Part shown: positions 18,563 through 28,090 of the stretch, in pieces
Numbering within the stretch: position 1 is the first letter of the stretch
How the letters are laid out: every line of letters starts with the position of its first letter
Origin: an uncultured Nitrospinota bacterium
Lineage (GTDB): Bacteria; JAUXIQ01
DNA length: 31,195 nt
Reading direction: 5' to 3'
Assembly: GCA_964452105.1 (NCBI GenBank)
Contig: CAYVLI010000001.1
Location: 6,423-37,617, forward strand
Notes under the pieces: model-generated
The model's database searches: none
Told to the model about the DNA's origin: nothing
What the model saw: the letters and a program-made list of their open reading frames with translations, nothing else
Position numbers and translations under genes: made by a program

Positions 18563-20971
18563 GTGGTGAAGAAGCTTTGGAAAAAACTGGATGAGGGAGC
18601 GCTGCTTTTCGACGGCGCCATGGGAAGCATGCTTCAGCACCGCTTTCAACGGCCCGGGGTATGTCTTGAGGAGTTGAACCTTCTGGAGCCGGAAATGGTG
18701 CGAAGCGTCCATGTGGCTTATGTCGATGAGGGCGTTGATGTAATAGAGACGAATACGCTGGGTGCCAACGCAGTAAAACTGAGTGAACACGGCCTCGGCC
18801 ACAAGGTTGAGGAGATAAACAGGCAGGCTGTCAAACTGGCCAGGGAGGCGGCATCGGGCAGATGTCTGGTGGCTCTCTCGGTGGGCTCGACGGGGAAATT
18901 TCTCGAGCCTATCGGTTCCATGACCTTCGATGAAATGCGCGAGGTTTTCCGGGCGCAGATATCTGCCGCAGCACGGGAAGGGGTGGATTTGGTGGTGATC
19001 GAGACCATATCCGACCTGAAAGAGATGAGGGCCGCGGTGGTGGCGGCCAAAGAGGCGGTTTCGGTTCCCATTATGGCTACCATGACCTTCCAGGAAGACG
19101 GCCGCACCCTCCTGGGTACCAGCCCGGAAGCGGCTGCCGTATGCCTCGAATCCATGGGGGTGAGCATAATAGGCGCGAATTGCGGCACCGGGCCTGAAAC
19201 CATGGTTCAGGTTTTGAGGGAGCTCAAGCGCTCCACAGGAGCTAAGGTAGCGGCACAGCCCAATGCAGGCATGCCCAGGCTGGAGGCCGGCAGGACCGTT
19301 TTCCCCCTCACTCCTGAGGAGATGGCTGATTATTACGTCCGCTTAATCAAGGAGGGGGCGGATGTCATCGGCGGTTGCTGCGGTACGACGCCGCAGCACA
19401 TGAGGGCGATGATCAAAGCCGTGAGGGATATCAAGCCTGCTTCGGCTGCGCCTCGTCTGGAGAGTACGGTGTTATCGAGCCGCAGCAGGGTGGTGAGGAT
19501 AGGAAACGGTTGCTTTCCGGTTGTAATAGGAGAGAGGATAAACCCCACGGGGCGCAAGAAGCTCTCCGGGGAACTGATGGAGGGAAAGCTGGACGCCGTT
19601 TTGAAAGAAGCCAGGGAACAGGTTGAAGCCGGAGCGGACCTCCTCGATGTTAACGTAGGAGCGCCCGGGGCCGACGAGGTGGGCCTCATGAGGGGGGCTT
19701 CGCTGGCTGTACAGCGCCAGGTGGCTTCTCCTCTGGTGCTGGACTCTCCCGACCCGCAGGCTCTGGAGGCTGGACTCAAGGCGGCGGATGGCAAGGTTCT
19801 CATCAACTCCGTGAACGGTGAACGGGAGAAGATAGAGGCGATAGTCCCTCTTGCTGTGAAATACGGGGCGGCGGTAATAGGATTGACCCTGGACGAGAAG
19901 GGCATATCCGAACGGGCTGCAGAGCGGCTGAAGGTAGCCCGTACTATCCTCGATGCCTCGATGGAGCTGGGACTTTCCAAAATGGACTTGATAATCGACT
20001 GTCTTGCCCTCTCCGTCAGCACGGATCAGGAGTTAGCCCTGGAGACCCTCCGCGCTATCGAATCCATAAAGAAGGAGTTGGGGCTTCCCATTTCACTTGG
20101 AGTCAGTAACGTCTCCTTCGGCCTGCCGGCGAGGGGGCTGATCAATTCAGCCTTCCTGGCCATGGCCCTGGGCTGCGGCCTTGACTGCGCCATTATGAAC
20201 CCCAAGGATTCGCGGATGATGGAGACCTTACAGGCCTCGGCTGTGCTCATGGGGAGGGATAAGAAGGCGCTGAGGTTCATAGACTCATATGGCAGGAGCG
20301 CTCCCGAGGTAAGAGCCGAAAAAGTTGAAGAACCTGTCGGCCCGGCCCGAAAGCTGTTTCGAGCAATAGTGGAGGGTCATAAAGAGAACATCCTCTCTCT
20401 TATGGAGGGGGTGTTTGAAGAGGGTGTTCCCCCCATGGAGCTGAGTGATGCCATACTCATCCCGGCGCTGGAAGAGGTGGGCCGGAAGTTTGAGAGCAAG
20501 GACTTTTTCCTACCGCAGGTAATGTTGTCCGCCGAAGCTGCCAAGATAGCTTTCGTCCGCATCAGGGAAGTATTAAAGGGGCATGAGACTGTATCCAGGG
20601 GGAAAGTCATAATGGCCACTGTAATGGGGGACATTCACGATATCGGCAAAAATATCGTCTCCATGCTTCTGGAAAATCATGGTTTTGAGGTGTTGAACCT
20701 GGGGATAAACGTCCCGGCGGAAAAAATTGCTGAGGCGGCGGTAGATAACAGTGTGGATGCCATCGGCTTGAGCGCCCTGATGACCACTACCATGCTGGAA
20801 ATGGGTAAAACGGTGAAGTATCTCAAGCAGAGGGAGATAAACTGCCCTATAATAGTGGGCGGGGCCGCGGTGACGCCTGAGTTCGCTGCCGAGATAGGGG
20901 CGGATGCCTATGGCAGGGACGCAGTGGATGCGGTGAACATAGCGAAGAAACTCATCCCTGAGAGGAAATGA
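18563..20971 (+). CDS. metH: Cobalamin-dependent methionine synthase, three-module form (Hcy-binding, pterin-binding, cap/B12-binding) without the C-terminal reactivation domain
   Basis: DGAMGSML, Zn ligands GANCG and GGCCG, IGERINPTG, LGVSNVSFG, B12 motif GDIHDIGKN, SALMTTT. The 802-aa protein ends right after the B12 domain. Confidence 0.9.
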   Translation: MVKKLWKKLDEGALLFDGAMGSMLQHRFQRPGVCLEELNLLEPEMVRSVHVAYVDEGVDVIETNTLGANAVKLSEHGLGHKVEEINRQAVKLAREAASGRCLVALSVGSTGKFLEPIGSMTFDEMREVFRAQISAAAREGVDLVVIETISDLKEMRAAVVAAKEAVSVPIMATMTFQEDGRTLLGTSPEAAAVCLESMGVSIIGANCGTGPETMVQVLRELKRSTGAKVAAQPNAGMPRLEAGRTVFPLTPEEMADYYVRLIKEGADVIGGCCGTTPQHMRAMIKAVRDIKPASAAPRLESTVLSSRSRVVRIGNGCFPVVIGERINPTGRKKLSGELMEGKLDAVLKEAREQVEAGADLLDVNVGAPGADEVGLMRGASLAVQRQVASPLVLDSPDPQALEAGLKAADGKVLINSVNGEREKIEAIVPLAVKYGAAVIGLTLDEKGISERAAERLKVARTILDASMELGLSKMDLIIDCLALSVSTDQELALETLRAIESIKKELGLPISLGVSNVSFGLPARGLINSAFLAMALGCGLDCAIMNPKDSRMMETLQASAVLMGRDKKALRFIDSYGRSAPEVRAEKVEEPVGPARKLFRAIVEGHKENILSLMEGVFEEGVPPMELSDAILIPALEEVGRKFESKDFFLPQVMLSAEAAKIAFVRIREVLKGHETVSRGKVIMATVMGDIHDIGKNIVSMLLENHGFEVLNLGINVPAEKIAEAAVDNSVDAIGLSALMTTTMLEMGKTVKYLKQREINCPIIVGGAAVTPEFAAEIGADAYGRDAVDAVNIAKKLIPERK

Positions 20972-22014
20972 TAGAACAAGTATCGAGTATCATGGATACG
21001 CTGGCTGCTGCAGTGATCCTGGCCGCCGGGAAGGGGGTCAGGATGGTTTCCGAGAGGGCCAAGGTGCTTCACCCCCTGTGCGGAGAGCCGATGTTGGGCC
21101 ATGTTCTTCGGGCGGTGGCCGAATGCGGCCCGGAGAGGACGCTGGTGGTGGTAGGCCATCAGGCTGAAGAAGTAAAGGCGGCTTTCGCCGATGAGAAAGT
21201 GGAATTCGTCCTGCAGGAAGAGCAGCGAGGCACCGGCCACGCTCTGATGCAAACCGAGAAATACCTGGGAGGTTGCGGCGGGGAAATCCTGGTGGTTCCC
21301 GGCGATACTCCTCTTCTTAAAGCGCAGACGCTTCTTACTCTTCTGAAAACGCACAGGGAAACCGGAGCAACGGTCTCCTTGCTGACGGCTCGATTGCCGG
21401 ACGCTGCGGGCTACGGCAGGGTTATTCGAGAGAGGGACGGCTCGGTGGCGAGGATAGTGGAGGACAGGGATGCGACTGTCGAAGAAGCCGCAGTCAACGA
21501 AATCAATGTAGGCGCATACTGTTTCGCAGCGTCCTTTCCCTTCGAGGCCCTGCTGAAGGTAAGGGATGATAACGCGCAAGGGGAGTTGTATCTCACGGAT
21601 GTGGTGGAGGTGGCGGTAGGTAATAGAGAAAAGGTAGCGGCGCTCGAGGCGGATGCTGATGAAGTGATGGGTGTGAACAGCAGGGTGGAGTTGGCGAGGG
21701 CGGAAAAGATAATGCGGAGCGAAATAAACCGATGCTGGATGCTTCGCGGTGTCACGATGGTGAATCCGGCTGCCACTTATGTCGATAGCGGCGCGAAAAT
21801 CGGGGTGGATTCCGTCATGCACCCCGGCTGCCATATACTGGGAGAATCAGTCATCGGTGAGCGGTGCACGGTCATGCCTGGAGCCATAGTAATAGACAGT
21901 CGGATCGGTCGGGAAGCCCGCCTGGGGCCGTATTGTATTCTGGAGCGCATCTCTGTCCCTGATGGGGGTGAGGTAGCGCCGTTTGAGATTAAGAGAGGAA
22001 CCGACCGGCCATAA
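20968..22014 (+). CDS. glmU: GlmU, C-terminally truncated (uridyltransferase domain, linker and first LbH coils only)
   Basis: ILAAGKGVRM...AKVLH, QRGTGHA, GDTPLL, GYGRVIR, IVEDRD, EINVG, NAQGELYLTD, GVNSR. Ends at VAPFEIKRGTDRP* (equivalent to GPFARLRP) after 348 aa. ATGA overlap with metH. Confidence 0.9.
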   Translation: MIEQVSSIMDTLAAAVILAAGKGVRMVSERAKVLHPLCGEPMLGHVLRAVAECGPERTLVVVGHQAEEVKAAFADEKVEFVLQEEQRGTGHALMQTEKYLGGCGGEILVVPGDTPLLKAQTLLTLLKTHRETGATVSLLTARLPDAAGYGRVIRERDGSVARIVEDRDATVEEAAVNEINVGAYCFAASFPFEALLKVRDDNAQGELYLTDVVEVAVGNREKVAALEADADEVMGVNSRVELARAEKIMRSEINRCWMLRGVTMVNPAATYVDSGAKIGVDSVMHPGCHILGESVIGERCTVMPGAIVIDSRIGREARLGPYCILERISVPDGGEVAPFEIKRGTDRP

Positions 22015-22044: not shown

Positions 22045-23247
22045 ATGAAAGCTGTCATTCTAACGGGTGGAAGAGCCACAAAGCTGGAGCCTTTCACTGC
22101 CACCAGACCTGCGGTGATGATTAACATCAGCGGCAGGTATCTTCTCGAGAATATCATATCTTTGCTTAGAGCGGCGGGGATCGTGGATATCGTGCTTGTG
22201 GTGGGTTATAAGCGGGAAAAGATAATTGATTACTTTAAAGGCGGTGGCGATCAGGGCGTTAACATAACCTATGCCGTCCAGGATGAGCCGGCGGGCATAG
22301 GTGATGCAGTCCTGAAGGCCAGGGATAAAGTTCTGCGTGGTGAATACTTCATGCTGGTGTATGGGGATACGCTCACCTGCTCTAATATATACAACGGCGC
22401 CATCAATTCTTTCAACTCCTTCAAGCTTCCCATAGCGTCCGTCTGTCTCACTCCCGCCACCCAGCGGTACGGCAACATATTTATGGATGGGGAGATGAAC
22501 ATCCACCGAATAATAGAGAAACCGCATGGGGAAGAGCTGGGGAATTATGTCCTGGCCGGAGCGTTCATTCTGCCCAGCGATTTTTTTAATCTGCTGCAAG
22601 AGAGCAATTGCGTCATGGAGGAAGCGCTGGATGCGGTTATCGGTGAGCAGGGGTTGAAAGCTTCCATCTGGGAAGAGGACTGGGTGGATATAGGACATCC
22701 CTGGGACATCCTGCGAGGCAACAAAATGATAATGGATTCCTGGGAGTATGCCTCTATTTCCAAGGAGGCCCGGCTCATGGGGGACGTGAGCATACAGGGC
22801 CCAGTGGTCATAGCGAACGATGTCACCATAGAGAAGGGTACACTGTTAAAGGGCCCCTGCTACGTTGGGCCGGGCTCGTTCGTGGGGCATAACGCCCTGG
22901 TCAGGGAGTACACTTCCATCGGGGCCAATTCGGTGGTGGGATTCGGGGTGGAGCTTAAAAATTGCGTGCTTTTCGGCGGGTCCAAGATTGGCCGGCTTTC
23001 TTTCGTTGGCGACAGCGTAATAGGCCAGGGTGTGTATATCGGTTCTGGAACCATGACCATCAACGGCTATCTGGACGGCGGCACCGTACGGGTTAAAAGC
23101 AATGGAATGGAAATGGACACCGGCTTGCACAAAATCGGGTCGTTTGTCGGCGATAATGTCATGGTTGGATCGGGCAACACTCTTGCTGCCGGATGTATTA
23201 TACCTTCCGGGGAACGGATTCCTCATCATTTTACATTCCCGAAATAA
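22045..23247 (+). CDS. Archaeal-type bifunctional GlmU-like nucleotidyltransferase/LbH protein with degenerate active sites (candidate pseudoenzyme)
   Basis: Full architecture (VYGD, YG, IIEKP, WVDIGHPWDIL, GPVVI..GPCYVG, ELKNC, VGDSVIG, DTG..KIGSFVGD), but GGRATKL..RPA replaces G.GTR...PK and RLSFVGDS replaces HLSYVGDS. Confidence 0.85.
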   Translation: MKAVILTGGRATKLEPFTATRPAVMINISGRYLLENIISLLRAAGIVDIVLVVGYKREKIIDYFKGGGDQGVNITYAVQDEPAGIGDAVLKARDKVLRGEYFMLVYGDTLTCSNIYNGAINSFNSFKLPIASVCLTPATQRYGNIFMDGEMNIHRIIEKPHGEELGNYVLAGAFILPSDFFNLLQESNCVMEEALDAVIGEQGLKASIWEEDWVDIGHPWDILRGNKMIMDSWEYASISKEARLMGDVSIQGPVVIANDVTIEKGTLLKGPCYVGPGSFVGHNALVREYTSIGANSVVGFGVELKNCVLFGGSKIGRLSFVGDSVIGQGVYIGSGTMTINGYLDGGTVRVKSNGMEMDTGLHKIGSFVGDNVMVGSGNTLAAGCIIPSGERIPHHFTFPK

Positions 23248-23261
23248 GGAGAGATTTTAAA

Positions 23262-25079
23262 TTGTGCGGAATTATCGGTATCGCCGGCTTTAATAATGTT
23301 GCTCATCAATTAGTCAGCAGCTTGAAAAACCTGGAATACAGGGGCTACGATTCCTGCGGGGTCGCCCTGGTCGATGATATGGCCATAGATGTGCGAAAGA
23401 ACATAGGAACCATCGAGGAGGTGGAGATAAAGGAGAAACTTTCCGAACCCAGGGGCAAAGTGGGCATAGGCCACACGCGCTGGGCGACCCACGGTATGGT
23501 GGCCGTGGAAAACGCTCATCCTCATACCAGCGCCAAGAAGGATTTCGCCGTGGTGCATAACGGCATAATCTCCAACTATACCGAGTTGAAGGAAGGGTTG
23601 GAAGGGGAGGGGTACAGGTTAGTTTCACAGACTGATACGGAGGTCATCGCCCACCTCATGGAGAAGAACTACTCGTTGACCAATGACCTGGAGGAAGCCT
23701 TCATTCAAACTCTACATTGCATTGAAGGAACTTACGCCATGGCGATGGTTTCCATATACGATCCCGACAGGGTATTCTGTGCCAAGATGGAGAGCCCTCT
23801 CATACTTGGCATAGGCCGGAGAGCCAACTATGTGGGCTCCGATTTCAACGCTTTCATAGAATATACCAAGAAGGCCATGGTGATGGAGGATGGGGAATAC
23901 GCCATACTGACCAGGGACAGTTATACGGTAAAGGATATTTTCACCAGGGATATAAAAGAGAAGTCCATCATGGAGATAGAGTGGGATATGGAGATGTCCC
24001 AGAAGGGTGGATATCCTCATTACATGCTCAAGGAGATACACGAGCAGCCACATACGGTGGTCAACGCACTGAACATATACGAGGAGGAGATCGAACGCCT
24101 GGCCCGGTCCATTGCCGAGAGCGGGCAGACTTATCTAATAGGCGCCGGGACCACTTATTATGTTTCCATGATAGCGCAGTACTATTTCTCCGATATCGCG
24201 GGAAGATTTATCCCCGCAATATGTTCTGATGAGTTCAACAACCTGGCTGCGGTGGGTGGTGATTCGATGGTGGTGGCGGTATCACAATCGGGGGAGACCT
24301 ATGACACCCTGAGCGCATTGAGATTCGCACAGGGGCGGGGGGCGAGAACTGCGGCCGTCGTGAACGTTATGGGGTCTTCCATGGCCCGGATGGTGGACCA
24401 CGCCATCATGCAGGGGTCGGGACCCGAGATATGTGTGTTGAGCACCAAGGCTGCTCTGGCTCAGATAGTCGTGCTATTGAGGACAGCTATAACGTTGGCC
24501 CGGATGGAGGGGACCATTTCGAAAAGCGAAGAGGATTCGTTGAGAAAAGACATCTCAGACCTCCCCCCGTTGCTGCAGAAAATACTCAACGAAAAATCGG
24601 GTCTGATAAACAACCTGGCTCGTAAAAACAGCGGCCAGAAAAACTGGATTTTTCTGGGGAGAGGCATCTATTACCCCATAGCTCTTGAAGCCGCGCTGAA
24701 GTACAAAGAAGCTGCATACCTTCACGCGGAGGGGATGCCGGGCGGGTTCCTGAAGCATGGGACACTGGCGCTTATAGACGAGGAGCTTTATACATTAATT
24801 TTCGTGCCGCCGAGAGGGGACTCGAATTACAACCTTAACATGGGCAGCGTTGAGCAAGTGAAAGCCCGGGGCGGGCGCATGATGGCTTTCCATTTCAATC
24901 GCATTAAGCAGCATAAGGAGTTGTTCGATGAAGCGTTGCTCCTGCCGCCCGCGCCTGAACTCACGGCCCCGCTGACTCAACTGGTGGCGGCGCAGCTCTT
25001 TGCCTATTTCACCGCCCTGGCTCTTAAGCGGAACGTGGATAAACCCAGATCTCTGGCCAAATCCGTCACCGTGGCTTGA
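23262..25079 (+). CDS. glmS: Glutamine--fructose-6-phosphate aminotransferase (isomerizing)
   Basis: TTG-TGC-GGA (fMet-Cys-Gly) at 23262 after AGGAG. GIGHTRWATHG, HNGII, TDTE, SQSGET, ALEAALKYKE, LKHG, LAKSVTV. The track start at 23193 would bury the catalytic Cys. Confidence 0.95.
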   Translation: MCGIIGIAGFNNVAHQLVSSLKNLEYRGYDSCGVALVDDMAIDVRKNIGTIEEVEIKEKLSEPRGKVGIGHTRWATHGMVAVENAHPHTSAKKDFAVVHNGIISNYTELKEGLEGEGYRLVSQTDTEVIAHLMEKNYSLTNDLEEAFIQTLHCIEGTYAMAMVSIYDPDRVFCAKMESPLILGIGRRANYVGSDFNAFIEYTKKAMVMEDGEYAILTRDSYTVKDIFTRDIKEKSIMEIEWDMEMSQKGGYPHYMLKEIHEQPHTVVNALNIYEEEIERLARSIAESGQTYLIGAGTTYYVSMIAQYYFSDIAGRFIPAICSDEFNNLAAVGGDSMVVAVSQSGETYDTLSALRFAQGRGARTAAVVNVMGSSMARMVDHAIMQGSGPEICVLSTKAALAQIVVLLRTAITLARMEGTISKSEEDSLRKDISDLPPLLQKILNEKSGLINNLARKNSGQKNWIFLGRGIYYPIALEAALKYKEAAYLHAEGMPGGFLKHGTLALIDEELYTLIFVPPRGDSNYNLNMGSVEQVKARGGRMMAFHFNRIKQHKELFDEALLLPPAPELTAPLTQLVAAQLFAYFTALALKRNVDKPRSLAKSVTVA

Positions 25080-25195: not shown

Positions 25196-27214
25196 ATGAG
25201 TTCTTTTGTGAGACTACAAGGGACCGATGGAGTCAGAGGCATTGTCCTGCCGTCCCACCATGAGAGTATCAGGACGCTCTCTCCGCAGGAAGCGTTCCTG
25301 GAGCGAGGTGTAATCACGGAGCAGTTCGTGGAGCTCTACTGCTACTGTGTGGTACGGTGCATGATGGACTGGGGCGAGATGGGGCCGGGCCGGGAAGTTA
25401 TCGTCGGATGGGACCCCCGGGACGAGCGAGGGGAATTGACAGGTGCGGCGTTAAGAGGGGCAGCCAGGGCAGGGGCCAGTGTGCTGGCCGCAGGGGTGCT
25501 TCCCACGCCTGCCGTACCTCTCTTCATGCTTCACAGGGATGCAAGCTTGAGCCTGGTGATAACGGCTTCGCACAATCCTGCGGACCAGAACGGTATAAAA
25601 ATCTTCCTGCCTTACCTGGCCTTGAAACCTTTGCCGGCAGAGGATGACTTGATAAGCGAGGCTGTCTTTAAGACCGATTACGCTGCGATAGAGAAGCTTG
25701 ACAGTTCCGAAGCGGAAGACGTTTCGGCGCCGGCCGAGGCTCTGTTCAAGGATTTTTGTTGTCAGGAAAGAAACTCCTGGTTGAAAGATGCGGACGCCCT
25801 GAGGGCTCTGACCTTAATAGTTGACCCCGCCAACGGCTCATATACTGATATAGCGCGTGAAGTTTTCGAACGATTGGGAGTAGGAGAGGTGATAGAAGTC
25901 AATCCTTCGCGGGAGGGGTCTGTGAACCGCGGCTCCGGGGTTACCCAACTGGAGGGGAACAGATACATCGGTTCGGACCTGGTTGGAAGCGGAGGGAGGG
26001 ATTACAGCGGGAACAGGACGGTAGCGGCCCTTTTTGAAAACGGAAGACGCAAGAGGCGTGAGATGCCGGTCGGGAAAGCCCTGGTCAGCGCGGCGGTGTT
26101 CGACGCCGACGGGGACCGATTCTATCGGGTTGACTATTTGCCCGATGATGACAGGGCGGTAGTCCTCACCGGAGATGAGATTGCCTACCTCCAGGCGGAA
26201 TACCTCATGCAGAATCATCATGAAGGGGATGAAAGCGGTCTATTCGTCACTACGGTGGAGAGTGACATAAACGTTCTGTCATCCGTGGGCGGCCTGGATC
26301 TGGAAACGGCGCAGACCGGTGTGGGGGATAAGTGGATTCTGAAGGAGATAGCGGAGCGGCGTCTGCCGGCGGGGTCCGGTGCAGAGCGGCGTGATCCCAG
26401 GTCTGCCCTGAGTTTAACGGGGCCGTTTAAGGGAAGGAACGCAAGAGATGAGGGACGTGCTTTATATATGGGGTGCGAGGAATCGGGCCATAATATAACA
26501 GGAGGGTGGCTTGAAGATAAAAAGGGTGAGGCGCAGCGGGTGTTCATTGGGAACGGCCTGAAGAGTGCGGTGAACTCTTACGTTGCCACGATGTCGGTGT
26601 GGTCGCGGTTATCCCGCAGGGAATATTTTGAGCACATCAACGAACCCTTTAGCCGGGGTTTTAAGAAAACCTATTATGTGTACCACACGGACAGGAAAAA
26701 ACTGAAAAGGGGAAGCCCCGTATGGAACGGTCTGCAATCGGTGTTGATGAAGCAGGTCAGCAGCGTTCTGGGGGGCAGATGCAGGGTCCACAAGCGCAGG
26801 TTTGTCGAGGATGAAGATATGCTTTACCTCCAGGCGCACCGGGAGGGGCATCCTGCAGCGGCGGTTTTCGCCAGGAACTCCGGCACCGAAGACAAGACGG
26901 GCATTAATTTAAGAGGAGGGATGGAAGACGAGGAGCCTCTGTCGGATATAGGTTTTGAGGGCGCCGCCTACCTGGCCGGCGAGATGAAGAGCGACGCCAC
27001 GCCGATGGGCAGAGCGTCTCTGCAGATAATGGAAATGATGTTCAGAGAGGGAGCATCGCGAGAGGATGAGCTGAGGAGCAGGTTCAGGGAACTGGACGTG
27101 GAAAGGCTCATTGATGAGATGCTGAACAAAGAGAAGCTTCTTTGCAGGAGAAGAGAAGGTGTTTTGGAATTATCGACCCTGGGCGGTGAGATTTGCAGGT
27201 CGAGATTCTCATAA
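25196..27214 (+). CDS. glmM: Enlarged alpha-D-phosphohexomutase, probable phosphoglucosamine mutase, with insertions and a C-terminal extension
   Basis: GTDGVRG, GVLPTPAV, phospho-Ser motif TASHNP..QNGIK, metal loop DADGDR, GEESGH-like CEESGH, RNSGTE. 672 aa. Context between glmS and an acetyltransferase. Confidence 0.75.
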   Translation: MSSFVRLQGTDGVRGIVLPSHHESIRTLSPQEAFLERGVITEQFVELYCYCVVRCMMDWGEMGPGREVIVGWDPRDERGELTGAALRGAARAGASVLAAGVLPTPAVPLFMLHRDASLSLVITASHNPADQNGIKIFLPYLALKPLPAEDDLISEAVFKTDYAAIEKLDSSEAEDVSAPAEALFKDFCCQERNSWLKDADALRALTLIVDPANGSYTDIAREVFERLGVGEVIEVNPSREGSVNRGSGVTQLEGNRYIGSDLVGSGGRDYSGNRTVAALFENGRRKRREMPVGKALVSAAVFDADGDRFYRVDYLPDDDRAVVLTGDEIAYLQAEYLMQNHHEGDESGLFVTTVESDINVLSSVGGLDLETAQTGVGDKWILKEIAERRLPAGSGAERRDPRSALSLTGPFKGRNARDEGRALYMGCEESGHNITGGWLEDKKGEAQRVFIGNGLKSAVNSYVATMSVWSRLSRREYFEHINEPFSRGFKKTYYVYHTDRKKLKRGSPVWNGLQSVLMKQVSSVLGGRCRVHKRRFVEDEDMLYLQAHREGHPAAAVFARNSGTEDKTGINLRGGMEDEEPLSDIGFEGAAYLAGEMKSDATPMGRASLQIMEMMFREGASREDELRSRFRELDVERLIDEMLNKEKLLCRRREGVLELSTLGGEICRSRFS

Positions 27215-27244
27215 GTGAATCTTTTAACAGCTTTGGAGCCTGAT

Positions 27245-28090
27245 ATGAACGAATCACAGAGCGGAGAGCAGTTTCGCCCTGAATTTTTTTTCCAGGGCCT
27301 GGCTGGTTTCAGATATGCGTCTCTATTCCAGGGGCTGACAAATGTCTGGGAGGCGGTGGCCAACCTTCATGGATACATAATGAATGCGCTTTCGAGTGAT
27401 GTGGCTTCTTCCAGCCGCGCCCTCTTCGAGCTGGATGGGGCGAGGCTGATTCCGCTTCTGGAGAAAACCCCGGAGGAACGAGACGGCATTCTTTCGTCCC
27501 AGGGCTACATGGTCCTGGAAGAGGACGTGTACCTCGAAGGGATAAGCATAGCAATCGGAAGAGGAACGATAATAGAGCCGGGGGTGGTTATCAAGTCCCC
27601 TACCATCATAGGCAGAGGGGCGGAACTGCGCCAGGGCGCATATATCAGGGGCAGAGTGATAATAGGGGATGAAGCGGTGGTGGGCCACGCCACCGAGGTA
27701 AAAAATTCCTTGTTCCTGGATCATGCCGAGGCCGGCCATTTCGCCTACGTCGGCGACAGCATCCTGGGGCGTCATGTGAACCTGGGAGCGGGAACCAAGC
27801 TGGCCAACCTGGAGCTGCGCGGCCCGCAGGACAAGGAGTCGGGCATTATTAAGCCCATCGTTATTACAGTAAACGGACGGCAGTACGATACGGGACTGGA
27901 GAAGCTTGGCGCAGTGCTGGGAGACGACGTGGAAACGGGATGTAATTCGGTGACGTCTCCAGGCGTTCTGGTGGGCCCCGGTTCCTGGATATACGCAAAC
28001 ACGACGGTCAAGAAGGGGTTCTACGGGAGCGATGTGATCATAAGAAACAGGAACGGCAGACTGAATTCCTCGCCCAGGCGCATGACCTGA
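27245..28090 (+). CDS. Stand-alone LbH acetyltransferase, probable glucosamine-1-phosphate N-acetyltransferase
   Basis: Hexapeptide repeats, GAYIRG, EVKNS, HFAYVGDSILG..VNLGAGTKLAN, DTGLEKLGAVLGD. No nucleotidyltransferase domain. ATG 27245 follows GGAG; GTG 27215 is an alternative start. Confidence 0.8.
   Translation: MNESQSGEQFRPEFFFQGLAGFRYASLFQGLTNVWEAVANLHGYIMNALSSDVASSSRALFELDGARLIPLLEKTPEERDGILSSQGYMVLEEDVYLEGISIAIGRGTIIEPGVVIKSPTIIGRGAELRQGAYIRGRVIIGDEAVVGHATEVKNSLFLDHAEAGHFAYVGDSILGRHVNLGAGTKLANLELRGPQDKESGIIKPIVITVNGRQYDTGLEKLGAVLGDDVETGCNSVTSPGVLVGPGSWIYANTTVKKGFYGSDVIIRNRNGRLNSSPRRMT

Follow-up and report, generated by a model that had tools for sequence, protein, structure and literature searches.

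Introduction

GlmU, an antibiotic target, is generally regarded as a bifunctional enzyme that is universal and essential in bacteria. The DNA analysed here (the window; 31,195 nucleotides from an uncultured Nitrospinota bacterium) encodes a GlmU that has kept its uridyltransferase domain and lost most of its left-handed beta-helix (LbH) part, which raises the question of which protein acetylates GlcN-1-P in this organism. Split and truncated GlmUs are noted in the accessible part of a June 2026 preprint, and the general phenomenon has therefore already been glimpsed: using the two halves of S. aureus GlmU as queries, the survey describes bacteria with the N-terminal GlmU domain only and "an unidentified acetyltransferase", as well as species encoding the two GlmU halves separately (bioRxiv 10.64898/2026.06.23.733835).

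A truncated GlmU and its neighbours

Within the window, a truncated glmU, a gene for a 400-aa GlmU paralogue, glmS, a glmM-like gene, the gene of a stand-alone LbH protein and pcrA follow each other in one direction with short gaps; all features given below lie on the forward (+) strand. The truncated bacterial GlmU (20968–22014; 348 aa, 334 bits) consists of a uridyltransferase domain with intact motifs and an LbH stub, ending at about model position 329. It aligns to residues 5–330 of E. coli GlmU, ending where the crystallised 331-residue form ends, and it shares this end point with the engineered truncated uridyltransferase GlmU-Tr331 (PDB 1fwy, 1fxj). The Tr331 truncation keeps uridyltransferase activity. 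Natural Nitrospinota GlmU forms (~250 aa) are shorter still. The glmS gene (glutamine–fructose-6-phosphate transaminase; 649 bits, above cut-off) extends from a putative start at 23262 to 25079, the listed ORF being 23193–25079 with the model match beginning at its residue 24. Directly upstream of the LbH gene lies the gene of an enlarged, divergent GlmM-like phosphohexomutase of 672 aa (25196–27214), scoring 109 bits against the glmM model, whose cut-off is 448.

The source genome is a 3.1-Mb MAG with a completeness of 89%, in which neither a full-length GlmU nor a further GlmU-type LbH with the catalytic set was found; apart from LpxA, two LbH matches belong to nucleotidyltransferases with LbH stubs too short to reach the active-site region. 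LpxA is encoded (335 bits, above cut-off), so that the genome needs UDP-GlcNAc. In the strict sense, a full-length GlmU could still lie on a missing contig of this incomplete genome; the sister species, the sole other species of the phylum in the genome collection, is in the same state, with the same truncation of GlmU at ~329 and no full-length GlmU found.

One candidate for the acetylation step is the 400-aa archaeal-type GlmU paralogue beside glmS (22045–23247), in which case the LbH gene would be redundant. This protein has a full-length GlmU-like architecture and reaches 289.9 bits with the Arch_glmU model, close to the cut-off of 292.1. Its LbH part, however, carries Arg at the position of the catalytic His (His308 in ST0452 of Sulfolobus tokodaii) and Phe at that of Tyr311, the Arg being kept in all 19 orthologues and the Phe in nearly all of them. 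Moreover, in truncated-GlmU genomes of Clostridia and Actinomycetota, which have the LbH family, no such paralogue was seen in the gene flanks examined. Based on the replacement of His by Arg in 19/19 orthologues, we rejected the paralogue as the acetyltransferase and consider this reading highly improbable.

Gene boundaries and domain layout of the LbH protein

The stand-alone LbH acetyltransferase candidate has its longest ORF at 27215–28090 (GTG start, TGA at 28088–28090, 291 aa). It abuts the TAA (27212–27214) of the 672-aa GlmM-like gene, in line with the first-pass annotation, which had placed it directly after glmM, and pcrA begins 10 nt after its end. The database copy of the protein (P0001) has 281 aa and begins at ATG 27245, the Met from which all close relatives align, and a GGAG ribosome-binding site, as read from the sequence, is located at 27236–27239, five bases (27240–27244) before this ATG. 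The real product therefore probably comprises 281 aa (27245–28090), with ATG 27245 probably being the likelier start than GTG 27215. Residue numbers given here count from the GTG.

The AlphaFold model, calculated with 28 relatives as input, has a mean pLDDT of 89.9 and a pTM of 0.88. It is predicted to contain short helices between residues 13 and 38 and a long helix comprising residues 46–65, followed by irregular LbH coils from ~67 to 278. Together with structure comparison, this delineates an amino-terminal helical cap (residues 11–66; 27245–27412), including a Trp at position 45 that is invariant among 28 family members, and an LbH domain (residues 67–278; 27413–28048). The first-pass annotation had described a non-LbH amino-terminal region of ~90 residues and proposed a structure prediction for it; the region is indeed present and folds, in the model, into the short helices and the long helix, but its extent was overestimated, as it covers about 65 residues with the LbH starting at ~67.

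The cap is conserved within the family, Trp45 included. As a guess, it might be what is left of the final part of a nucleotidyltransferase domain. Profile–profile alignment of the whole family with the 400-aa paralogue covered the LbH part only, and the amino-terminal part alone ran colinear with paralogue residues 171–264 (FF..L and PWD/VWE motifs) at an E-value of 0.24 and a probability of 0.3%, values which are not significant, and the idea of a nucleotidyltransferase remnant therefore stays a guess.

Conserved active-site residues

Equivalents of all GlmU acetyltransferase residues had been recognised in the first-pass annotation, and alignment confirmed every one of them. The roles of these residues are taken from structural work on E. 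coli GlmU and ST0452, in which we take E. coli His363 and ST0452 His308 to be the catalytic base, and Arg333, Glu349, Lys351, Asn377, Asn386 and Lys392 of E. coli GlmU to be phosphate and sugar ligands. The segment His175-Phe-Ala-Tyr178 (27737–27748) corresponds to His363/Tyr366 of E. coli GlmU and to His308/Tyr311 of ST0452, and the codons CAT at 27737 and TAC at 27746, which had been assigned to His and Tyr, were confirmed in the sequence. Glu161-Val-Lys163 in EVKNS (27695–27703) matches Glu349 and Lys351, Asn189 in VNLGAG (27779–27781) matches Asn377, Asn198 in KLAN (27806–27808) matches Asn386 as well as Asn331 of ST0452, and Lys230 in EKLGA (27902–27904), located in the third aligned stretch with E. 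coli GlmU, matches Lys392. The ST0452 sequence PHLSYVGDS...ANL accordingly lines up with GHFAYVGDS...ANL of the window protein.

For Arg333 of E. coli GlmU, which binds the sugar phosphate, two candidates were considered. The phmmer alignment to E. coli GlmU contains a 6-residue gap (query 135–198 against residues 329–386 of 1hv9) and would pair Arg333 with Arg139. Counting back without gaps from Asn198 = Asn386, as done for the residue equivalences, yields Arg145 in AYIRG (27647–27649; codon AGG) instead. Arg145 was preferred and Arg139 rejected because the spacing to the catalytic His amounts to 30 residues in both E. coli GlmU and ST0452, exactly as for Arg145, the Arg that the first-pass annotation had named. 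Arg139 is an extra invariant residue of the window protein in comparison to ST0452.

None of these GlmU-equivalent residues varies among 28 family members, which are 72–42% identical to the window protein over 88–97% of its length, so that a chance match does not account for them. Between Asn198 and Lys230 the protein contains an insert loop of about 30 residues (199–229; 27809–27901), with Arg202 invariant and Lys207 nearly invariant, for which the predicted model suggests a helix (204–209) and a hairpin (216–225). This insert is common to ST0452 and absent from bacterial GlmU, and the earlier remark that the carboxy-terminal part is archaeal in style therefore holds.

Relationship to archaeal-type and bacterial GlmU

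The Pfam scan detected Hexapep repeats only (55 bits) and no NTP_transferase domain in the window protein. The best NCBIfam match was the acetyltransferase part (positions 238–393) of Arch_glmU (TIGR03992) with 150 bits (cut-off 292.1), followed by the Thermoprotei equivalog NF041173 with 105 bits and by alt_bact_glmU (TIGR03991) with 84.7 bits against a cut-off of 225. The latter, a hypothetical equivalog, describes a 394-aa two-domain protein, of which the window protein matches the LbH part only (model positions 201–346). Bacterial GlmU models reached up to 58 bits (glmU model 56.5 bits, cut-off 366.85), LpxD 34–38, NeuD/PglB 33, Vat 24, LpxA 21 and DapH 18 bits, the LpxD, Vat, LpxA and DapH scores being far below their cut-offs. 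As no NCBIfam model reaches its cut-off, no curated family holds this protein.

The archaeal-type assignment is corroborated at the level of known structures. The best PDB sequence match is ST0452 (E-value 5e-24; query 89–268 against chain residues 223–392, aligning without large gaps), with bacterial GlmUs next at 1e-11 and weaker. Structure comparison of the predicted model likewise placed ST0452 clearly first, with a Z-score of 24.3 and an rmsd of 2.3 over 208 residues, as compared to Z ~18 for bacterial GlmU (model residues 63–67 to 282 on GlmU 263–443) and 17.6 for LpxA. Thus ST0452 (PDB 2ggo, 5z09, 5z0a), together with TIGR03992 and MJ1101, represents the best match in both sequence and structure, sharing the His/Tyr/Asn set and the insert, whereas the window protein is devoid of the nucleotidyltransferase domain and carries the ~65-residue helical cap in its place. 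The C-domains of bacterial GlmU (E. coli, S. pneumoniae, M. tuberculosis) have the same LbH fold, the same residues and presumably the same reaction, but the window protein falls into a separate clade with 22–29% identity in structural alignments, is encoded by its own gene and contains the archaeal-type insert. It is no fragment split off from the resident bacterial GlmU.

As had been proposed, we compared the family with bacterial GlmU C-domains and the paralogue in a phylogeny. In this quick maximum-likelihood tree, which took in no DapH, LpxA, LpxD or other LbH acyltransferases and no bona fide archaeal GlmU, the stand-alone LbH proteins formed one group (SH-aLRT 95), next to the GlmU-type LbH domains yet separate from them, with the paralogue LbH (99) and the bacterial GlmU C-domains (99) as distinct groups. 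The window protein shares with this family its length, the helical cap with the Trp, the active-site set and the clade. Clustering with DapH, LpxA or O-acetyltransferases, which would have spoken against the first-pass assignment, was not seen in the profile scores, where the 150 bits of Arch_glmU stand against ~58 for GlmU, 38 for LpxD and 18 for DapH.

Many LbH sugar N-acetyltransferases have the same fold, WlbB, PglD and QdtC giving Z-scores of ~17 with the predicted model. The protein might thus acetylate another amine, e.g. that of a nucleotide-linked amino sugar for a surface glycan, or be a non-catalytic partner, with an unrelated enzyme performing the GlmU step. Such families score far lower, however (NeuD/PglB 33 bits), the phosphate-binding residues of GlmU are retained, and the gene is single-copy, nearly universal in Nitrospinota and located beside glmM rather than beside glycan genes, leaving only a very slight chance for this explanation.

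A proposed free-standing GlcN-1-P N-acetyltransferase

Shown by the analysis are the homology and fold of the protein, the conservation of its residues, its gene context and its phyletic complementarity with truncated GlmU. We propose, with a probability of about 0.75, that the window LbH protein is a free-standing GlcN-1-P N-acetyltransferase supplying the GlmU step lost by the truncated GlmU. The first-pass annotation had already suggested a dedicated enzyme of this kind complementing the truncated GlmU, and the suggestion gains computational support from the profile scores, the lack of a detected full-length GlmU, the disqualified paralogue and the co-occurrence described below.

In the proposed mechanism, the protein would assemble into an LbH trimer, as the C-terminal parts of GlmU and ST0452 do, and bind acetyl-CoA and GlcN-1-P where its subunits meet. 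His175 would serve as the base for the 2-amino group, with the 1-phosphate kept in place by Arg145, Lys163 and Lys230 and the sugar by Tyr178, Asn189 and Asn198. The truncated GlmU, a separate gene product, would then uridylylate the GlcNAc-1-P formed, giving a route from GlmS via the GlmM-like mutase, the LbH enzyme and the truncated GlmU to UDP-GlcNAc, for which we infer that the LbH enzyme would be the sole source of the acetylation step.

We take ST0452 to acetylate GalN-1-P as well, so the specificity of the window protein may be broader. Its main substrate could accordingly be an amino-sugar-1-phosphate other than GlcN-1-P (e.g. GalN-1-P for UDP-GalNAc), or it could be dual-specific like ST0452, which is the closest characterised relative; the occurrence of some genomes carrying both a full-length GlmU and a family member would fit this as well. 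Nevertheless, genomes without any other candidate for the GlcN-1-P acetyltransferase must make GlcNAc-1-P, LpxA being present here, the family tracks the loss of the GlmU C-half, and its gene neighbours are glmS, glmM and nagB and not epimerases. We therefore regard a different or dual main substrate as unlikely.

Co-occurrence with truncated GlmU

The link to the loss of the GlmU C-half was assessed by counting genomes. In a sample of 61 Nitrospinota genomes, 59 encode a family member, one each, and in 60 the GlmU match covers only model positions 2 to ~240, in frames of ~250 aa, while a full-length GlmU was found in none of the 61. A Clostridia-like class of 149 genomes contains 54 with GlmU truncated near 330, 87 with full-length GlmU and 8 without a GlmU match. 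Here, 44 of the 54 truncated-GlmU genomes encode a family member, versus 4/87 with the full-length form, and none was found in the 8 lacking a GlmU match. The 10 truncated-GlmU genomes without a detected member either are incomplete MAGs or have another solution. Fifteen further genomes with a family member, from other lineages, were taken singly: 13 contain a truncated GlmU as the sole form or no GlmU, and the remaining two are a Planctomycetia genome with a full-length GlmU and an archaeon with an archaeal-type GlmU.

The family is thus paired with a truncated GlmU repeatedly, in separate phyla and at two truncation points (~240 and ~330). Many of the counted genomes are incomplete MAGs. As the genomes are mutually related, these counts overstate the independence of the observations, and for this reason the 2x2 table of the Clostridia-like class is given as counts rather than as a Fisher test. 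Since four of the 87 full-length-GlmU genomes and the Planctomycetia genome carry the family too, it is not strictly a replacement.

Distribution of the family

A word-indexed search with the window protein yielded 6,491 matches, of which the best 120 all comprise 206–310 aa and cover 69–97% of the query including the amino-terminal region. An exhaustive search of 50% representatives gave 181 clusters at E ≤ 1e-30, nearly all of 200–320 aa with isolated longer proteins. Among proteins of 511–2000 aa we found no close fused relative, only weak matches of up to 101 bits, a blank that counts as weak evidence. Relatives are encoded in at least 592 species, based on a scan with one genome per species, and those listed span Nitrospinota, Tectomicrobia, Chloroflexota, Bacillota/Clostridia, Actinomycetota, Thermodesulfobacteriota, Nitrospirota, Acidobacteriota and Planctomycetota, as well as one archaeon. 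The stand-alone LbH acetyltransferase is a widespread family and not an oddity of the window locus. Its members carry public names such as "hypothetical protein", "glucose-1-phosphate thymidylyltransferase" or "isoleucine patch superfamily enzyme".

While the chemistry and the fold are already known, we did not find, in curated families or the literature searched, a stand-alone archaeal-type family that is near-universal in the sampled Nitrospinota and complementary to a truncated GlmU. The accessible part of the June 2026 preprint names no such family, nor Nitrospinota, gene contexts or biochemistry on a protein of this type. The family is a concrete candidate for its "unidentified acetyltransferase", which makes the question testable, and we consider it likely that the family is this enzyme in all bacteria having the N-terminal GlmU domain only, having its origin in an archaeal-type lineage and not in the resident GlmU. 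The data point to a division of the two GlmU activities in the sampled Nitrospinota, in large Clostridia-like groups, in some Actinomycetota, Chloroflexota and Acidobacteriota, and in others, with the acetyltransferase step residing on a distinct archaeal-type free-standing protein now annotated as "hypothetical" or as "glucose-1-phosphate thymidylyltransferase". With this assignment, gaps would be closed in the reconstructed metabolic pathways of marine nitrite oxidisers and of many MAGs, and the family offers a natural system for asking why GlmU activities fuse or split.

Gene neighbourhoods

Three unrelated arrangements were observed around the family genes, the neighbours being glmM, glmS, nagB or a uridyltransferase-domain gene. 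The first, found in Nitrospinota/Tectomicrobia-like MAGs, consists of a truncated or N-only glmU, the paralogue gene, glmS, a glmM-like gene, the family gene and pcrA; in Nitrospinales, the pair of glmM-like and family gene is kept together with the rest of the cluster located elsewhere. In the second arrangement, found in Clostridia, the family gene is accompanied by a canonical glmM (558 bits, above cut-off) and nagB, and a version with glmS added occurs even in genomes keeping a full-length GlmU.

The identity of the adjacent mutase bears on the order of the pathway steps, which cannot be read off the sequence. In Nitrospinota-like genomes the neighbouring mutase is enlarged (672 aa) and very divergent, with 109 bits where the cut-off is 448, and one might envisage that it serves as a GlcNAc-phosphate mutase with the LbH protein acetylating GlcN-6-P, i.e. 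a eukaryote-like step order in these bacteria in which an LbH enzyme replaces the GNAT enzyme. On the other hand, the three basic 1-phosphate ligands of GlmU are conserved without exception, the neighbour in Clostridia is a canonical GlmM above its cut-off, and we know of no LbH enzyme acting on GlcN-6-P. Acetylation of GlcN-6-P thus appears very unlikely.

The third arrangement was observed in an Anaerolineae genome, where the end of a 241-aa nucleotidyltransferase-domain gene overlaps the start of the family gene. This 241-aa gene matches Arch_glmU positions 1–231 with 162 bits, and the pair looks like a split archaeal-type GlmU.

GlmU truncation and the GlmU-like paralogue

The truncated GlmU encoded in the window (20968–22014) ends naturally at the point that coincides with the end of the engineered E. 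coli variant GlmU-Tr331, known from the crystal structures 1fwy and 1fxj. The GlmU proteins of the Nitrospinota relatives are cut earlier, comprising about 250 residues and lacking the left-handed β-helix (LbH) stub. Because these proteins end before the Tr331-like terminus of the window GlmU, two separate natural truncation points exist.

The 400-residue GlmU paralogue (22045–23247, forward strand) is well conserved among its orthologues, with identities of 43–56%, and is always positioned ahead of glmS. In the window paralogue and in all 19 orthologues (loci L016–L072) the catalytic histidine is replaced by arginine within the motif VGRLSF. The paralogue appears to be a conserved GlmU-like protein that is probably non-acetylating.

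Gene neighbourhood of the proposed stand-alone acetyltransferases

The 672-residue GlmM-like mutase (25196–27214) scored only 109 bits with the glmM model versus a cut-off of 448, yet in Nitrospinota-like genomes it consistently lies immediately to the left of the family member, the proposed stand-alone LbH acetyltransferase (27215–28090 in the window). In Clostridia-like genomes the family member is grouped with canonical glmM and nagB, the latter encoding GlcN-6-P deaminase, with or without glmS (L076:7998–10970; L100, L101, L102), and this grouping is kept even in those genomes that encode a full-length GlmU elsewhere. An Anaerolineae locus (L055:5092–8735) exhibits the order divergent LbH protein, phosphohexomutase, nucleotidyltransferase-only gene and family member, where the first gene encodes a second LbH protein matching the acetyltransferase part of the archaeal GlmU model with 163 bits, and the stop of the nucleotidyltransferase-only gene overlaps the start of the family member.

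Host genome and variation within the family

The window genome is a MAG of 550 contigs, 89% complete, from a phylum to which the GTDB-based collection assigns just two species. On its contig C270 (L008:1423–3250), the gene after lpxA resembles that for UDP-GlcNAc 3-dehydrogenase (251 bits, under the cut-off), a gene arrangement hinting at lipid A of the GlcN3N type in this bacterium.

Where the long helix gives way to the LbH coils (27395–27490; residues 61–92), the window protein is longer than other family members by approximately 12–15 residues, a feature it shares with its nearest three or four relatives. This stretch is modelled with low confidence (pLDDT 61–63). In one family member, P0089, the archaeal-type loop is extended by a 28-residue insertion that follows its conserved L-R-S motif.
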